Source: Coleofasciculus chthonoplastes F2-STO-03 (GTDB taxonomy: Bacteria > Cyanobacteriota > Cyanobacteriia > Cyanobacteriales > Coleofasciculaceae). Taken from it: 64,000 bases of DNA. Where the stretch lies: contig JAVJWO010000178.1 in NCBI GenBank assembly GCA_040222015.1, positions 64,001-128,000 on the forward strand. The letters are read 5' to 3'. The notes under the pieces are model-generated. The model did no database searches. It was not told the DNA's origin and saw only the letters and a program-made list of their open reading frames with translations. This document shows positions 2,916 to 12,644 of this stretch, piece by piece. Position 1 is the stretch's first letter. Every line of letters starts with the position of its first letter. Position numbers and translations under genes: made by a program.

Positions 2916-3350
2916 GTGCGATTAACCCCTTTGATGCAATATCACGTTATTTACGACGGCAACTGCAATCTTTGTGTCACGTTAGTGCAGCTTCTGGAAA
3001 ATCTGGATCAAGGACAGCAGTTTGATTACATTCCCATGCAGGATGAAGCCACCTGTGAAAACTTTGGCATTACCCCCCAAGACTGCGAAATGGGGATGAT
3101 TCTCATTGATGGGGCGTCCCCGGAATGTCGGTGGCAAGGGAGTGAGGCGGCTGAGGAAATTGGGCGTCTGTTGCCTATGGGCGAGGTGTTCGTCTCAGCA
3201 TATCGGGCAATGCCTGGAATGAAATGGCTAGGCGATCGCACATATCAACAGGTTCGTGATAATCGGTATAGTTGGTTTGGCAAGCGATCGAGTACCTACA
3301 ATTCAGCTTATCCTCTGGGATGTCAGGATAACCAAAATTGCCAGACGTAA
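2916..3350 (+). CDS. Thiol-disulfide oxidoreductase DCC family (DUF393)
   Basis: YDGNCNLC (DxxCxxC) motif and YQQVRDNRY near the C-terminus. True start may be the ATG at ~2934. Confidence 0.85.
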   Translation: MRLTPLMQYHVIYDGNCNLCVTLVQLLENLDQGQQFDYIPMQDEATCENFGITPQDCEMGMILIDGASPECRWQGSEAAEEIGRLLPMGEVFVSAYRAMPGMKWLGDRTYQQVRDNRYSWFGKRSSTYNSAYPLGCQDNQNCQT

Positions 3351-3432
3351 TTGGAATGTGGCTGATATAATCTCGGTTCGTAGTAGGCACGAAGCGTGCC
3401 AGAAGTGAAGACAGCGCTTACTACAAGCGGCT

Positions 3433-3620
3433 AAATCCAGATAACCGTTATCACCAGTAGTATGCACTTTCCAGCCTGTTTTACTCGGATACGTCCAGCC
3501 AGAATAATGTTTGATTGACTTGTATTTAGGACGCTTGGCTAACCCTTTAAACCACCGATTAAATGCGTAATCAACGCGCTTTAAGGTAGCTTGTAAAGTG
3601 ATGCAGTTACACTCTTTGTC
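3433..3620 (-). pseudogene. tnpB: tnpB internal fragment
   Basis: LQATLKRVDYAFNRWFKGLAKRPKYKSIKHYSGWTYP...GWKV aligns by eye to the TnpB at 11271 (LQATVKRVDLAYKAFFQGLRKSPKLKSIRNYSGWMYP...GWKV). No start and no RuvC domain. Confidence 0.85.
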
Positions 3621-3629
3621 TTTGTATAA

Positions 3630-4022
3630 GGTTCTCATTCTGTATTCTCTGTTCAACTGCATATAGTGTTCGTGACTAAATACAGGCGCAAGATTATTAC
3701 ATCGGGAATGTTAGAGCGATTACATGAGGTGCTTGCAAATGTCTGTATTAAGACAAAGTGCCGCCTTGTCGAGTTTTCAGGAGAAGCTGATCACGTTCAT
3801 TTACTGGTAGACTTTCATCCAGACAACAACCTATCATCTTTGATTGGTAGCATGAAGTCTGCCTCTAGTTGAATTATCAGAAAAGACTTTGCCGTGGAAC
3901 TGTCAAAAACTTATACTAAGTCGGCATTTTGGTCAGGCTCTTATTATGTTGCTTCTACTGGTGGCGCTCCCATTGAGAGAGTTAAGGCTTATATTAAATC
4001 CCAAGAAACACCTCAAGATTAA
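3630..4022 (+). pseudogene. tnpA: IS200/IS605 Y1 transposase pseudogene
   Basis: GSHSVFSVQLHIVFVTKYRR..., HUH motif DHVHLL, in-frame TGA at 3870-3872, then the frame continues FWSGSYYVASTGG...KAYIKSQ. Start codon is missing. Confidence 0.9.
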
Positions 4023-4220
4023 CCCTGAGCCAAGTCGAAGGGTTGATTGCCTCCGTTCCTCCGGCAATCCGCTATCCCTCCCCACCCTCCTGAGCCTGCG
4101 AAGGATCTGCTGAGGGTGGGGACTCCCGCGAACACGTTGAAGCTAAGAGGCAACTTATACCCTATAAGTAGCGTCTATTGTTTGAGTACCTGAACTGTAG
4201 CTATTTTAATTTTATGTACC

Positions 4221-5072
4221 ATGGTTAATCCTTTCTCCTTCTGGTCTCATCGTCACCGTCGTCGTTTATTATATCCTTATGTGTCAGCGATCTTAGCGTT
4301 TAGCCTGATCGTGGGTACACCTCAGGTGAGTCAAGCAATTCCCTGGCTGGATCTGATTTTCCGAGGCGTCCAGATTATCCAACTTTCCAATATTTCTGAT
4401 CGCCAGGAAGTCGAGATCGGAGAGCAGATCAATCAGAAGTTGGTGAGAAACCAGATCCAACTCTATCGCAATTCCAGTGTCAACCGCTACATTGATCAGA
4501 TTGGTCAGCGATTGGCAAAAGAAACTCAACGCTCTAATATTCCCTATACGTTTCAGGTGGTTAAGGATGATAGCATTAATGCCTTCGCGACTACGGGGGG
4601 TTTTATTTATCTCAACACGGGTTTGATTGAAGCGGCGGACAATGAGGCTCAATTGGCTAGTGTGATTGCTCATGAAATCGGGCATATCGAAGAGGAACAC
4701 ATGATTCAACAAATGCGCCAAACCGCCATCGCTAGGGGAGTAGCCGTTGCCGCAGGTCTAGATCGCAATACCTTAGTCAATATTGGCGTGGACTTGGCGC
4801 TGCGGTTACCCAATAGTCGTGAAGATGAATTTGAGGCGGATCAAGTTGGGTTAGACATCCTCAAAAAAGCAGGCTACGCACCGTCAGCCATGGTAAATTT
4901 CATGGAAAAACTCCAGCAGAAAAGCGGTTCCGTCCCCTCTTTCCTCAGCACTCATCCAGGTGTTGACGATCGCATTAATGCCTTGAAGCAGGCGATCGAT
5001 CCGGCTGAAGCTACTGTCGGTGATGGTTTGGATGAAAATGCCTACAAAGCCAAAATTCGCCCCCTGCAATAG
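4221..5072 (+). CDS. M48 family zinc metalloprotease (secreted)
   Basis: Signal-peptide-like N-terminus, INAFATTGG, HEIGH, SREDEFEAD, FLSTHP. Confidence 0.92.
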   Translation: MVNPFSFWSHRHRRRLLYPYVSAILAFSLIVGTPQVSQAIPWLDLIFRGVQIIQLSNISDRQEVEIGEQINQKLVRNQIQLYRNSSVNRYIDQIGQRLAKETQRSNIPYTFQVVKDDSINAFATTGGFIYLNTGLIEAADNEAQLASVIAHEIGHIEEEHMIQQMRQTAIARGVAVAAGLDRNTLVNIGVDLALRLPNSREDEFEADQVGLDILKKAGYAPSAMVNFMEKLQQKSGSVPSFLSTHPGVDDRINALKQAIDPAEATVGDGLDENAYKAKIRPLQ

Positions 5073-5178
5073 GATTATCTCGGGTAGCAACATCCATCCC
5101 TCGTTCTTTGGGTTCCCAACTCCCCCAGACGTAGCATGCTACGTCTCTACATTGCTTCCCCAGCTCCCTCATACTGCA

Positions 5179-5928
5179 CTAGGAACGGAGTACAGAACGA
5201 CGTGGTAAGAGTTGTGAAGGCTCTACCCTTGTCACCGCCTCCCCAAGTGGCATTTGGCGAACCCGTTGTCGAAAAACATTGGCTTGATAAACCCGTGAGT
5301 TGGTCAGGTCTAATCCTGTGAGCCAACCACTTTTAGGATGATAAGCGCCTGTATCAATATCCAACCATCCTCGACCTTGGGCAATTCGTCCCGGTTGTAC
5401 TCCTGGCAAGGTAAAGGTAATCGTATGACCAATGATAATTAACTTATCTGTAAAATAAGGCTCTTGAATGCTATGAAATTCATCCCTAATCCAACAAAAT
5501 TGTTCTGACGTTTGTTTTTCCAGGGGTAAACGGGGATGAACTCCAGCATGGACTAACCATGTATCTCCTAAATCGATATGGGTGGGTAAGGTACGCATCC
5601 ACTCAATATGGTCTTGGCGGACACCATTCTCACCATAACTATTGATGGTACTGTGACCACCACTATAGAGCCATGCTTGCAGGGCTGGACCATAGATTTC
5701 TCCCTGACCCAGGATTTCTAAGAGCATTTGCTCATGATTGCCTAGCAAGCAAGGATAAGGGCTTTGCTTGACAAATTCAACAACTTGAGAGCTTTGGGAA
5801 CCCCTATCAATTAAGTCTCCCAAAAAATAGACCTGATCGTCTTTACCAGGAGCGATCGCATCCAATAAGGTCATTAGGGTATCGTAGTGCCCATGCACGT
5901 CACCGATAACAATCCGACGGTGAGTCAT
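5179..5928 (-). CDS. Ser/Thr protein phosphatase (calcineurin-like metallophosphoesterase)
   Basis: GDVHG, GDLIDRG, GNHE, HAG, GHT and IDTG motifs. Confidence 0.92.
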   Translation of the reverse strand: MTHRRIVIGDVHGHYDTLMTLLDAIAPGKDDQVYFLGDLIDRGSQSSQVVEFVKQSPYPCLLGNHEQMLLEILGQGEIYGPALQAWLYSGGHSTINSYGENGVRQDHIEWMRTLPTHIDLGDTWLVHAGVHPRLPLEKQTSEQFCWIRDEFHSIQEPYFTDKLIIIGHTITFTLPGVQPGRIAQGRGWLDIDTGAYHPKSGWLTGLDLTNSRVYQANVFRQRVRQMPLGEAVTRVEPSQLLPRRSVLRS

Positions 5929-6135
5929 TGTTTATTGATCCAAATCCGTGTCGTCAAATAATAAGTAGCACCCATAAACGTTTACTTGCACCAGTTTGGT
6001 TACCAAAAGCTGGATTATTGTGTGCCGAGGTATGTTTACCAGGGGTAGGCAAGATTCTCAGGCTTAGGATACTCTATTATCTATTAGTTAAAACAAGTGC
6101 TAACATCTATCTTCCGGGTTTCAGAGGAAATTCAT

Positions 6136-6550
6136 CTGTCTTCTCGGAGGTCTCCACCATAGCTGTACTCAGCTTGGTGGTGGGAGGAAACGGGGGGCAG
6201 ATCTCGACTCCCCTCGATACAAGTGGTCTAGGCAATATATCCATAACTGGTTGGTTTTTCAACTGAAATACAGTGCAGGTTTTTTGATGGGAAACCTACA
6301 AAACCCACTCGGATTACTCCGGTAATGTTAGCTTAGACAATGTTAGTGGTCGGTACTTTCTCAAAAGCACTGCCTCCCAGATGGCTGTTTAACTTTTGAG
6401 TTTTAGAGCTACAGACTAGCTACGCATCCGTAGGTAAGAACTTAAACACTTGCCACTAACGTAGGCATTCCTGCCTGAGTCGGGTCAACTCGGGCTATCT
6501 TAGAAGCCCCCGTTATAATCGGTACTCCGATTTAACGGTGGGTTGTTGAC
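6136..6550 (-). mobile_element. Non-autonomous IscB-type OMEGA mini-element (omegaRNA plus both ends, ORF deleted)
   Basis: Minus strand begins GTCAACAACCCACC and ends TTCCTCCCACCA...TGGTGGAGACCTCCGAGAAGACAG|ATGAA. Only a C-terminal-like ORF remnant remains (SHQKTCTVFQ / SYGY). Confidence 0.8.
6310..6550 (-). ncRNA. HEARO / IscB-type omegaRNA scaffold (the guide would be the ~20 nt at 6551-6570, minus strand)
   Basis: Reverse complement shows HEARO hallmarks in order: GTCAACAACCC, GGGGCTT...AGCCCGAGTTGACC, CTACGTT, CCTACGGATGC...CTAGTCTGTAGCTCTA, GTTAAACAG, CAGTGCT, ACATTGTC...GCTAACATTACC. Confidence 0.8.
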
Positions 6551-6667
6551 TGAATTTCACACCTTTTCCGCTTAGCATCCAGCACGCCATGGATAAATAC
6601 CAGTTTCCTCGAATCCCAGTCTCTATCCTAATCATCTTCCCCCTATTGTGATTCACCAGACAGTTCG

Positions 6668-7282
6668 ATGTCACCAAAACCTGTGTTAGATTCTCCCTGG
6701 GTAATGATTCATGCCCTCCAACAACCCACGAGCTGGACTTGGGTTGAACAAGCCCTAGCTCACCTTGATCTCATTCTACTCGACCATTCCCAATGCGAAC
6801 GCAAAGCGGCAGGTGTCGCCCTGAATTTAATCTTTCGCTATCCATCGAGTACCCAACTGGTTCGTCAGCTTACCGCGATCGCGCGTGAGGAACTGGATCA
6901 CTTTGAACAAGTCAATCAATGGCTGGAACGACGGGGTATTCCCCTAGCTTCCCTCTCTCCATCGCCTTATGGTGCTAAACTGAAAGCCCAGATTCGTCGT
7001 TATGAACCGGATCGGTTATTAGATTCTTTACTGGTGGCTGCTCTCATTGAGGCTCGCTCTCACGAACGGTTGGGCTTACTGGCAACTCATTGCCCTGACC
7101 CGGAACTCGCCGCGTTTTATCAAGAGTTGATGACATCTGAAGCGCGTCACTATGGTGTGTATTGGGTGCTAGCGGATACCTATTTTGAGCGGGAGGTTGT
7201 CAACCAGAGGCTAGCAGAACTGGCTGCAATCGAAAGTCAGTTACTGAGTACGCTTTACCCAGAACCTCGAATTCACAGTTAG
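6668..7282 (+). CDS. miaE: tRNA-(ms2io6A37) hydroxylase MiaE
   Basis: LLDHSQCERKAA, EELDHF, IEARSHER, SEARHY and terminal PRIHS (di-iron MiaE signature). Confidence 0.92.
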   Translation: MSPKPVLDSPWVMIHALQQPTSWTWVEQALAHLDLILLDHSQCERKAAGVALNLIFRYPSSTQLVRQLTAIAREELDHFEQVNQWLERRGIPLASLSPSPYGAKLKAQIRRYEPDRLLDSLLVAALIEARSHERLGLLATHCPDPELAAFYQELMTSEARHYGVYWVLADTYFEREVVNQRLAELAAIESQLLSTLYPEPRIHS

Positions 7283-7564
7283 AGTCAAGGTTAGGGGATT
7301 TAGCCCATTGATTCTGTTAACTATTATTTTTAATAATGTAGAAATAATAAGTTTTTTAGAGTAATTTATTTTAAAGAATTGATAAGTTTAACCCACAAAT
7401 TGAACTTATTAACTTACATGAGAGTATAGTCAAAGTGCTCAGTAAACAGTCACTCATGATTCGTCCATCTGTTTAATTGTGTTAGCACTTGGATTCATAC
7501 AATCCGTAACGCGATTCAAGTGAGCGAATGATGAGTGATTCAAGTTCACCTAGGAGGCGTAACG

Positions 7565-8179
7565 ATGAATCTAGCAAAGACTTCAACAGTCCTTGGCTTA
7601 GTGGCTGGCAGTGCCTTGGCTTTATCGGCGATGCCAGCAGACGCTGCCTCATTTAACAATGGGGGTATTTTGTTTGATACCGATACTAAAGTTGATTTTG
7701 AGTTCCTGGAATCTCACGGAGCGTTCAAATCGACCTTGTCTATCGTAGAAGCAGATGCGAAAGATACACCTGTATATACCCTGTTTACCGAGAACGAGGC
7801 ATTCATATCGGGAAGAGACGATTACAAAGGACTTTGTCCCGAAACAGTTACCGTACCCGGTACCGATTCTTGCACGAACTGGTTCGAGTTTCAAGCTGGT
7901 GTAGAGTATAGCTTGCTGCTTGACTCTGGTAACAATGGTAAGGTTTGGTCAACAGATGCCTTGAATATGCCTGTCGAGACACTGGCAGAGTTTAGCTTTG
8001 TACAAAATGATGCTGGCAAGTACACGATTGACTTTGAAGATAAGGGATTTGCTCCTTATGACTTCAACGACTTTACGATCACGGCAGAAATGACCGATAT
8101 CCCTGAGCCCGCTACATTGGCTGGTTTAGGATTAATTGGTGGAGCATTGGCTCTAACCCGTCGTCGTAAAGCTAAGTAA
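7565..8179 (+). CDS. PEP-CTERM sorting domain surface protein
   Basis: RBS AGGAGG before the ATG, signal peptide, DFNDF motif, C-terminal IPEPATLAGLGLIGGALALTRRRKAK. Confidence 0.9.
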   Translation: MNLAKTSTVLGLVAGSALALSAMPADAASFNNGGILFDTDTKVDFEFLESHGAFKSTLSIVEADAKDTPVYTLFTENEAFISGRDDYKGLCPETVTVPGTDSCTNWFEFQAGVEYSLLLDSGNNGKVWSTDALNMPVETLAEFSFVQNDAGKYTIDFEDKGFAPYDFNDFTITAEMTDIPEPATLAGLGLIGGALALTRRRKAK

Positions 8180-8249
8180 AGCTCTGAAGCGATCGCGCTT
8201 TTAATGCCTCTTAGCTTCAAGCTAGCTGAATCATGCTTCTATTCAATTT

Positions 8250-8283
8250 CCCACACTAAGCTGACATTATAGTGTGGGTTTTT
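8250..8283 (+). terminator. Rho-independent terminator
   Basis: CCCACACTA-loop-TAGTGTGGG followed by TTTTT, between convergent genes. Confidence 0.7.
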
Positions 8284-8298
8284 GCTTGTTTATCAGGC

Positions 8299-8958
8299 TC
8301 ACTTAGGTTCAACCGGATGCTGTCCGTAAAACGGTAACGCCTGAGACCAGTGAGGACGTTTTCCTTGCTGCCAATCTAAATAAGCCAAGTCTAATACACT
8401 GGTGACACAAGTTCCTAAATCAACGGATACCTCAATGAGTTGATAGGGGAGGTTTTGATGATCTAGGACGTGTTGCCAGATATCGGGTGTGATCACTGCA
8501 TCTGGTACAAGCGGTGTCAAGCTGGAACCCTCCGAGGATGGCTGATAGATTGCAGTATACAACTGCCCCCGTCGAGCAGGCATTTGTAGCGCGATCGCTC
8601 TTTTGTGTGAGGTTTCTAGGTGTTCTTTCCCTTGAAGCATGACTGACCAAGCAACGGCTGCCAAGGTGGAAATGGCAAATAAAGGAATATCCAGTTGCTG
8701 TGCCAAAGTTCGGGCTGTTACCACACCAATACGAGTGCCTGTAAAACTGCCCGGACCTTTGGCGACGGTAATAAATGCCACATCTGACCAAGCGTTTGGG
8801 AGCAAAAACTCACTCAAGTGTTGATGGAAGTGAGTCGATAAATCTCGTCCCAAATCCCAGGTAGCCGCACGATTATCGTTCTGAAAATTACTGATAGCTA
8901 ATCCGAGTTGAGGACTGGTGGTATGTAGGGCTAAACCGTATTGGTTGTCATTGGTCAT
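8299..8958 (-). CDS. tsaB: tRNA threonylcarbamoyladenosine biosynthesis protein TsaB
   Basis: LALHTT, VAKGPGSFTGTRIG, MPARRG, ALPFYGQHP. Confidence 0.92.
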   Translation of the reverse strand: MTNDNQYGLALHTTSPQLGLAISNFQNDNRAATWDLGRDLSTHFHQHLSEFLLPNAWSDVAFITVAKGPGSFTGTRIGVVTARTLAQQLDIPLFAISTLAAVAWSVMLQGKEHLETSHKRAIALQMPARRGQLYTAIYQPSSEGSSLTPLVPDAVITPDIWQHVLDHQNLPYQLIEVSVDLGTCVTSVLDLAYLDWQQGKRPHWSQALPFYGQHPVEPK

Positions 8959-9419
8959 TAGTCATTTGTCATTTGTCATACTCGAATGTCATACTCGAAG
9001 AGCGCGAGAAGCAAGCTACGTTATTTGTCATTCGTGACATACTCCAGACAGCGATACAAGTATACGCTGCTGGCTTCTCCCACCTACTACATCTATAATG
9101 AGCTCTATTTCTAGAGCGTAGGATTCGAGCTTTTTATAGTGAGTAAGATGCCCAGACCCACTTTTTAATACTTTTCTCAAAAGGTGTGAGAACTTGTTTT
9201 TAAGCTTTCGTTTTTTGCTTTTCCAGAAAACGTATTCCAGCTATGGGTGTCTACTCTGTGCATTGCCCGAAAGAAAGGCGTAGAACGGCCCATCTATTTA
9301 TTTTACGTTTGCCACGTTTTTAGTATATATTCGACGCATGAAATTTGACAACTCCGCTTCGCTTCATTGTCAGGCTATCCTTCCCGACGCTCCCCTTCGG
9401 GAGAGCTATAGGCGACAGC

Positions 9420-11270: not shown

Positions 11271-12644
11271 TTGGTAGTAAGGCGGCACACATTTCGATTG
11301 TATCCAAGCAAACAGCAGTCTAAAAAGCTGTTTACAGCACGTCGTCTTCATGCCGACCTGTACAACGCTTGTATCACTCACCGTCGTTATGAATGGAAAG
11401 CGAACCATCGCTCAGTTACCTATTTTGAGCAGCAGAATTGCCTACCGGAGTTCAAGAAATTCTGGGCAGACTATGCTTCTCTCAACTCCTTAAGTCTTCA
11501 GGCAACAGTCAAACGGGTTGACTTAGCCTATAAAGCCTTTTTTCAGGGGTTAAGGAAGTCCCCAAAATTAAAGTCTATTCGCAATTACTCCGGTTGGATG
11601 TATCCATCTTCACCTAAGAAATCAGGCTGGAAGGTGGAGAGCAATGGGGAACATGGGCGCGTCACTCTCAAAGACCTGGGAATCACCTTACGGATACGGG
11701 GGAAAGCCAAGCAGTGGGGAAAGCCGACAACACTTACCATTGTCTATAAGCCGAGATTGAATCAGTGGTTTGCCTCAATTACGGTTGAGGTAGAAGACGC
11801 GCCACCAAAATTCGGATCGCAATCTGACTTAAGTTACGAGTCAGTGGTAGCCTTCGATTTGGGAACCGAGACAGCAATCACCACCTATAACGGCTCCGAA
11901 TTTGAGGAGATAATCAACCCTCGGTTTACCCAAGTCCTGGAACCCAAGATCAAGAAAGCTTCCAAGAAGTTAAGGAGAAAACGCGCTCCCAATCGGCAAA
12001 AGCGGGTTAAGGCATCTAACCGATGGAAAAAGTATCGCCGGAAAGTATCAAAGCTTCAACGGAAAGCTGCCAATCAACGGAAAGACTGGCAGCATAAGGT
12101 AACGTCAGATTTAGCAAGTCGTTATGACATCGGCGTAACTGAAAAGTTGAACACCAAGGCGATGACAAAGAAGGCGAAAAAAGGGGGTAAGGGGAAGAAG
12201 CAAAAAGCCGGACTAAACAAATCCATTTTATCAGTAGGTTTTGGCAATCTGAACAAATTGCTGACCTATAAGATAGAAGGAAAGGGAGGCTTGATGTTAA
12301 CCCTAGACACCCGAAAGCTGAAGCCATCACAGCGCTGTCCTCAATGCCATACAGTCCATAAAGAGTGGGCGGACTTATCAAACCGGTACCATGTTTGTGA
12401 CAAGTGTGGATTTGAGATTGAAAGGGATAAAGGCAGCGTATTGCTAATGTATAATGTTGCGACAAATAAGCAACCGGAGTTAGGAACTAGCTCCGTTAGT
12501 CTTGGATGTTCTAGCTCTACTTCTGACCCGAAAATTCGTAAGAATTGTGGAGGGATGAAGCAACTAGGGCAGATGAAAAGACGAAGAGCCCAAGTTGAGA
12601 GGAAGGGGAAATTGAAACCCCAATCTCCTACGAGTTGGGGTTAG
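11271..12644 (+). CDS. tnpB: RNA-guided endonuclease TnpB
   Basis: TFRLYP N-terminus, RuvC-I AFDLGT, RuvC-II VTEKL, Zn finger CPQC...CDKC, RuvC-III ERD. Confidence 0.93.
   Translation: MVVRRHTFRLYPSKQQSKKLFTARRLHADLYNACITHRRYEWKANHRSVTYFEQQNCLPEFKKFWADYASLNSLSLQATVKRVDLAYKAFFQGLRKSPKLKSIRNYSGWMYPSSPKKSGWKVESNGEHGRVTLKDLGITLRIRGKAKQWGKPTTLTIVYKPRLNQWFASITVEVEDAPPKFGSQSDLSYESVVAFDLGTETAITTYNGSEFEEIINPRFTQVLEPKIKKASKKLRRKRAPNRQKRVKASNRWKKYRRKVSKLQRKAANQRKDWQHKVTSDLASRYDIGVTEKLNTKAMTKKAKKGGKGKKQKAGLNKSILSVGFGNLNKLLTYKIEGKGGLMLTLDTRKLKPSQRCPQCHTVHKEWADLSNRYHVCDKCGFEIERDKGSVLLMYNVATNKQPELGTSSVSLGCSSSTSDPKIRKNCGGMKQLGQMKRRRAQVERKGKLKPQSPTSWG

Follow-up and report, generated by a model that had tools for sequence, protein, structure and literature searches.

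A gene-less IscB-type transposon miniature with a complete omegaRNA scaffold in Coleofasciculus chthonoplastes

The element and its surroundings

The window, that is the whole stretch of DNA analysed here, comprises 64,000 nucleotides of Coleofasciculus chthonoplastes F2-STO-03 (contig JAVJWO010000178.1). Between a host metallophosphoesterase gene (5179..5928, minus strand; Pfam PF00149) and the divergent host gene miaE (6668..7282, plus strand; Pfam PF06175, 279 bits) it carries a whole non-autonomous element of 415 bp (6136..6550, minus strand), the phosphatase gene lying downstream on the element strand. The element starts with GTCAAC at 6550, ends in ...GAAGACAG at 6136 and sits between TCA and ATGAA without target duplication. 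A sequence-only reading of this DNA had proposed this length and these ends, with ATGAA directly beyond the distal end and a transposon end on each side. Length and ends are borne out by the sequence and by the empty alleles described below, ATGAA is present at 6135-6131, and DNA folding places a hairpin of the IS200/IS605 type at each end. One of these is located at the scaffold end (6510..6538, minus strand; DNA fold and alignment), the right end in the naming of Meers et al., and the other at the TAM-side or left end (6154..6180, plus strand; DNA fold and comparison with the ends of L084, L086, L087 and L143). A GAGTAC loop is common to both folds. The left end as a whole is nearly identical to that of full-length IscB elements of other cyanobacteria (L084, L086, L087, L143 and L154).

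The scaffold itself (6322..6550, minus strand) matches the full Rfam model of the HEARO or IscB omegaRNA (RF02033, model positions 1-211) with 126.9 bits (E 5e-27; gathering score 83), and is the single match over threshold in the part of the window scanned with Rfam (4000-9000). The complete HEARO-like scaffold suspected from the letters alone was thus recovered by the covariance model. A candidate cobalamin riboswitch at 6512-6585 was rejected: its 24.6 bits fall short of the gathering score (36.5), and it extends across the insertion joint. The scaffold is followed by a small hairpin, CGGAG-TAA-TCCG (6310..6321, minus strand; folding and blastn), which recurs in the same genome ahead of two iscB frames (on C12 and C23).

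The place of iscB is occupied by a non-coding tail (6225..6309, minus strand) which is unrecognisable as iscB, followed by a 24-bp short dispersed repeat (6201..6224, minus strand) that is 92-96% identical to four other sites of the genome. The element includes no protein-coding gene, and the absence of an iscB frame downstream of the scaffold sets it outside the ISC2 transposons. A scrap of the iscB 3′ end had been claimed here and found no support. Neither Pfam nor tblastn against plasmids (E 10) gave a match for the 30-codon frame at 6231-6320, and its comparison with 15 IscB/IsrB-type frames of the genome gave nothing meaningful among the matches listed. Set against 26 distinct IscB 3′ ends it behaved like shuffled sequence in 25 cases (p 0.095 or more); the remaining match, at p 0.005, is discounted because it fails after 26 tests. 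The start of the tail (55 bases, 6276-6330) is 82-84% like the tails of gene-less HEARO elements in three genomes (G030, G099 and G118). No gene-bearing parent with the same tail was present among 20 genome loci having an 18-base scaffold motif, the best full IscB element in that search being L154, with a scaffold identity of 86%. Matches in metagenomes (n=14) comprise two IscB loci, the other 12 lacking a HEARO match, and a comparison of the tail with 401 genomes of the phylum gave partial matches alone.

A consensus scan found four promoter-like sites where 1.4 are expected. GTGACA-18-CACAAT (6645..6674, minus strand; 9/12, a consensus match alone), some 90 bases ahead of the scaffold, is a candidate source of guide-bearing transcripts, and TTGAAA-17-TATATT in the tail (6234..6262, minus strand; 10/12, likewise a consensus match alone) points toward the downstream host gene. 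A terminator scan of 5900-6900 found no site. Elsewhere in the window there is a decayed IS605-type element (3303-4140), with an internal stop in its Y1 tnpA and a truncated divergent tnpB-like frame, as well as a 457-aa TnpB-like frame (11271-12644) identified by eye.

Empty alleles, a second copy and identity between species

Removal of the element had been predicted to rebuild a palindromic site, and this was checked in related genomes. A precise empty allele was found in seven of the eight relatives from the genus (G001, G002, G003, G005, G006, G007 and G008), in which TCA is joined to ATGAA or to a one-base variant; ATGAA, the target motif and predicted TAM (host DNA, 6131..6135, minus strand), is kept in six of the seven. 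Since these relatives miss exactly those bases, the boundaries and the empty site are correct, and the rebuilt site GAAATTCA-T-TGAATTTC occurs in nature as an empty allele, with an exact counterpart in G002, G003 and G006. G004 carries an element at the same site as the window copy; a further record filled at this site (L145) was not counted as another genome.

The palindrome of the empty site (8-1-8; left arm 6127..6134, plus strand, right arm 6551-6558) is unusual in its position: 8-bp arms centred likewise occur at none of the 19,569 other ATGAA sites of the genome and 7-bp arms at one, in a genome with 513 perfect 8-1-8 palindromes. A possible operator role had been suggested for it and finds no support. 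Among the seven empty alleles it is perfect in just three, reduced to 7 bp in two and internally broken in two, and by inspection it is invisible in 14 other genera. It may mark a hot spot of insertion, be due to chance or be an operator, the last of which its conservation does not favour. In the same intergenic region of G008, about 85 bases off and just before miaE, there is a different gene-less HEARO element (G008:C9:41043-41270, L027). By eye, TCA recurs in the last few host bases 5′ of the window, tig (see below), C77, L143, L116 and L111 elements, where it mirrors the TGA of the target.

The same genome contains a second copy (97.4% identity in 427 bases) at G000:C177:6432-6850 (L092), directly preceding the ATG of a trigger-factor-like gene which, from its sequence, we take to be tig. 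This site is empty (TCA|ATGAA) in seven of the eight relatives and filled in G002. Window and tig copies have an identical kind of gene-less interior, and its presence at two loci indicates that the miniature moved as a unit after gene loss. Of the features of PATE-type elements, the following are found here: no gene, hairpins at both ends, insertion at a fixed motif without duplication and mobility in the gene-less state. As in full elements, GGGGGAAG forms the end of the tig copy, five bases ahead of the start codon. Compared with the tig copy and with full elements, the window copy has lost four of the bases that separate the left hairpin from the TAM; it is without the ribosome-binding motif and precedes a mere 4-codon frame. 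With four of the tig-type end bases lost and this short frame after it, the window copy is the derived one, and the loss at its left end could have blocked excision and left the guide without work. The G002 tig copy has an inverted left-hairpin loop.

Between the genome under study (G000) and G004, divergence amounts to 6.0% in the 105.5 kb compared and to 16.6% at four-fold sites, whereas their element copies show no substitution in 409 aligned bases, five mismatches falling at two small left-end deletions. The 473-column identical run that contains the element is the only run of at least 300 bases in the 105.5 kb sample. In the local intergenic flanks, 9-11 of 316 positions differ (Fisher p 5e-4 to 1e-4). 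Barring a 10-base deletion next to the G004 end, the first difference appears 9 bases beyond the TAM-side end and 65 beyond the guide-side end, so that the tract shared beyond the element extends over at most 8 bases on one side and 64 on the other. The flank variant 6591G is found only in the two filled alleles, and G000 and G004 are non-sisters in all three local trees, although the nodes concerned are poorly supported in two of them. Other gene-less scaffolds common to three to five species are about 1% divergent, with coding flanks at 3-7% and non-coding flanks at about 2%; at 1% divergence the chance of zero differences is 0.017. The absence of substitutions means that the window element is no drifting old relic. 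The tract reflects either a recent short-tract move between species, as homing would give, or strong constraint, and neither reading proves action in trans.

The tig copy shows the same identity between G000 and G002 as the window copy does between G000 and G004. These two genomes share 13 identical runs of at least 300 bases in 143 kb without any element, and as several others lie in the region of the tig copy, it is weak evidence for homing. The idea that scaffolds are generally more conserved than non-coding flanks was not borne out, pooled scaffolds differing by 2.6% and the 100 upstream bases by 1.8% in 17 same-site comparisons of 10 elements, in which C49, C71 and C120 stand at 3-14%. 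For the latter (G000:C71:28046, C120:2862 and C49:8539), the same-site scaffold variants of relatives differ by 3-14%, suggesting repeated insertion or conversion among paralogues. Another gene-less scaffold (G000:C30:62366-62590) occupies one site in five species with two differences in 225 bases, and its 100 upstream bases are nearly invariant.

Guide, scaffold RNA and candidate partner proteins

A guide taken from the 5′ flank had been proposed and is supported: by analogy with IscB omegaRNAs, the predicted guide CGGAAAAGGTGTGAAATTCA is placed in host DNA 5′ of the scaffold (6551..6570, minus strand). In agreement with the cut-and-copy model, it matches nothing but the empty site of the element itself. 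The genome holds no other site for the 10-base seed with RTGA and none for 17 guide bases with ATGA within three mismatches; IMG/VR gave no exact match and 50,697 phage records nothing beyond chance. A target other than the donor site found no support in the genome, IMG/VR and the phage records. In the G004 copy (G004:C41, L020 near 3038), 10 host bases are missing beside the scaffold end, a loss which alters the guide and would abolish its match to the ancestral empty allele.

When the reference structure is folded exclusively from the 11 IscB-linked rows, 66 of its 67 pairs are retained in the window scaffold, with none broken against C77 and one against L154. C77 carries the closest IscB-linked scaffold of the genome, 82.5% identical to that of the window. 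The 40 differences between them include 10 two-sided and three one-sided changes in kept pairs and break none, when random change breaks 14.1 +/- 2.8 pairs and no simulation among 5000 was as low as observed. These compensatory changes may predate the loss of iscB or stem from module swaps among elements.

Public RNA runs give a weak hint that the element is transcribed. Contigs at least 99% identical to parts of the element were present in three of six distinct runs, from two studies, at a depth of 3-5; the runs were picked because they hold the element, their contigs show neither 5′ end, strand nor level, and DNA carry-over is possible. Two of these contigs cross the TAM-side joint of the window copy and most of the surrounding 19.5 kb is bare, though bare cover elsewhere in the window is by itself no evidence. 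A fourth run contains a piece of the tig type, and one low-depth contig bridges the guide junction of the tig copy. Runs X2 and X4 contain the empty allele at a depth of 180-370, flat over both divergent genes and hence uninformative on strand or promoter. Short repeats at 612-660 and 5124-5172 of the window draw many small RNA-run contigs, at a depth of up to 170.

The suggestion that an IscB encoded elsewhere could load the guide was followed by a search of the genome, which revealed an intact IscB on C77 as a plausible partner. The genome has 35 HEARO matches, 26 of them over the cut-off; among the matches listed, four of these 26 precede a whole IscB frame, four a broken one, two are truncated by contig ends and 16 have no adjacent RRXRR match. 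The C77 IscB (428 aa) scores 461.6 bits with NF040563 against a cut-off of 175, shows RuvC and HNH motifs in the alignment and carries a Cys where 12 of 13 other aligned IscBs have Gly; its nearest solved structures are other IscBs, 9K30 and 7XHT. Its element is followed by ATGAA, on a start codon, this TAM being read from the flanks alone, and at the loci listed in relatives the site is a precise empty join in four of six, a 3-base variant in one and out of register in one. IscB proteins 88-90% identical to that of C77 (L111, L113, L116 and L118) are associated with scaffolds just 56-60% identical to its own, so that this clade appears to tolerate more scaffold change than a scaffold at 82% represents. 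The window scaffold would thus be well inside the apparent tolerance of the clade and compatible with the C77 enzyme. That one cyanobacterial IscB clade takes scaffolds about 60% alike, as this suggests, is relevant to guide design. In a comparison of L111, L113, L116 and L118 with L093, helices and terminal hairpins seem to have been exchanged among elements, and L113 has the left hairpin of the window element at its right end. As to the transposase, 16 Y1 matches over the Pfam cut-off are present in the genome, several of them whole frames, but no autonomous Y1 element came to light whose two ends clearly match those of the window element.

Explanations of the element and comparison with known systems

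We favour, with a probability of roughly 0.6, a self-serving gene-less IS200/IS605 element which is moved by borrowed TnpA and kept by borrowed IscB cutting emptied sites. It would be a miniaturised IscB (ISC) transposon, which reached two or more ATGAA sites by moving in one piece and kept its omegaRNA scaffold intact. By analogy with characterised IS200/IS605 systems, excision and insertion would be carried out in trans by a Y1 TnpA; transcription would probably start in the host flank and supply the guide ...GGTGTGAAATTCA; and the omegaRNA would probably be loaded by the C77 IscB to form an RNP able to cleave guide plus ATGAA at the donor joint. The cut empty copy would then be repaired by recombination from a filled copy, so that the site is refilled and the element serves itself, not as a host regulator. 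What this reading has to accommodate is observed: boundaries, scarless insertion, two copies, an intact fold, intact IscB and Y1 frames at other loci of the genome, and no further target of the guide within it.

The same gene-less transposon might be a young passenger whose RNA is unused, moved by TnpA in trans and shared through ordinary DNA exchange between close species, the scaffold being intact because little time has elapsed. We consider this unlikely, yet worth serious attention. Patchy presence (two of nine genomes at each site) and near identity are both consistent with youth, the RNA evidence is weak, the nearest IscB-linked scaffolds found are just 82-86% identical, and G000 and G002 share their 13 other identical runs in 143 kb without any element. 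Such exchange accounts poorly for the G004 tract, which is nearly confined to the element in a 105.5 kb sample with no other 300-base run, and for the other gene-less scaffolds, which in three to five species diverge by only about 1% beside coding flanks at 3-7%. An old insertion under selection for a host role, as leader, promoter or ribosome-binding site for the phosphatase gene and tig or through interruption of an operator, and precisely lost elsewhere, would explain the very low divergence, the unusually perfect palindrome at the insertion site, the outward promoter-like site in the tail and the GGGGGAAG of the tig copy five bases 5′ of the start codon. Seven of eight relatives nevertheless manage without the element, four of seven empty alleles have a broken palindrome and 14 other genera show none, the ribosome-binding motif of the window copy is gone with a mere 4-codon frame next to it, G000 and G004 are non-sisters in all three local trees, and a whole IscB fold would be needless for such a role; we judge it improbable. 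Highly improbable is a use of the RNA in defence or in regulation in trans, with IscB directed at foreign DNA or at another chromosomal locus. What speaks for it is the general capacity of stand-alone omegaRNAs to act in trans, as given in PMC10691335, and this off-site reading is already largely refuted by a guide that is host flank, also present in relatives without the element, and by the lack of a guide target in the genome, IMG/VR or the 50,697 phage records.

Beyond retention by borrowed proteins, a gene-less guide-RNA element of this kind might home between cyanobacterial species in nature, the 473-column tract of G000 and G004 being its footprint, a proposal that we make tentatively and hold to be somewhat doubtful. 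On entry into a species with the empty allele, the RNA would be loaded by a resident IscB and the empty site cut, and the element would be copied in together with only a few dozen flanking bases. If homing is real, such elements are RNA-only gene drives parasitising a shared nuclease, and a tract produced by IscB would be evidence from nature for the spread of RNA-only elements via a borrowed nuclease, which goes beyond the sister-chromosome retention seen in the laboratory. No population evidence for homing by stand-alone omegaRNAs was found in the literature covered, which left aside most subscription papers and bioRxiv supplements. In any case the locus is a well-bounded natural test case, with element, empty allele, second copy, candidate nuclease and TAM together.

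Novelty of the arrangement finds no support. Stand-alone, mobile, trans-acting omegaRNAs have already been described (PMC10691335; bioRxiv 2023.03.14.532601), and in the present genome 16 of the 26 HEARO matches over the cut-off lack, among the matches listed, an adjacent IscB-type frame, which also counts against novelty. According to PMC10691335, mobilised stand-alone omegaRNAs occur in effector-bearing genomes and were shown to work in trans, their biological role being unknown; like the OMEGA stand-alone omegaRNAs of Altae-Tran et al. (2021), as cited there, the present element is mobile, free of nuclease and transposase genes and accompanied by effector loci in the genome. The evidence here differs in being comparative, from empty alleles, two loci and near identity between species. 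Similar cyanobacterial elements may be listed in the supplements of Altae-Tran 2021. Related gene-less elements of other cyanobacteria (L141, L150 and L075) have a scaffold interrupted by another insertion, 380-440 bases long, and one Anaerolineae genome contains at least six gene-less HEARO elements (L138, L139, L142, L144, L147 and L148), several ending on start codons.

With HEARO RNA (RF02033; Weinberg et al. 2009) the element shares a full-length match over the gathering score, here without an adjacent HNH frame. HEARO is equated with the IscB omegaRNA, and its guide placed in the flank, in PMC13565253 and PMC10734217. ISC transposons with an N|ATGA target are known from cyanobacteria, for example ISC1-1_MA of Microcystis (Kapitonov et al., PMC4810608). 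The features in common with it are a 5′-GT terminus, insertion upstream of ATGA without target duplication, subterminal hairpins and a cyanobacterial host; unlike it, the window element is without any IscB or IsrB frame. A search of the literature for a link between AwaIscB and ATGA returned nothing. Also close are the gene-less, PATE-like relatives of ISGst1 and ISGst5 in Geobacillus stearothermophilus, which often carry omegaRNAs, described by Meers et al. (bioRxiv 10.1101/2023.03.14.532601), where the TAM of GstIscB is given as TTCAT. They share with the element both ends, the lack of a gene, a retained omegaRNA with the IscB scaffold at the right end, the TAM (TTCAT/ATGAA) and the cut-and-copy model of retention; here the host is a cyanobacterium and the tail is distinct, with a short dispersed repeat, and the remark on action in trans in that work names TnpB. 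The kind of element is already known, and the near-unchanged copy of this one in a second species may be a trace of borrowed cutting in nature.
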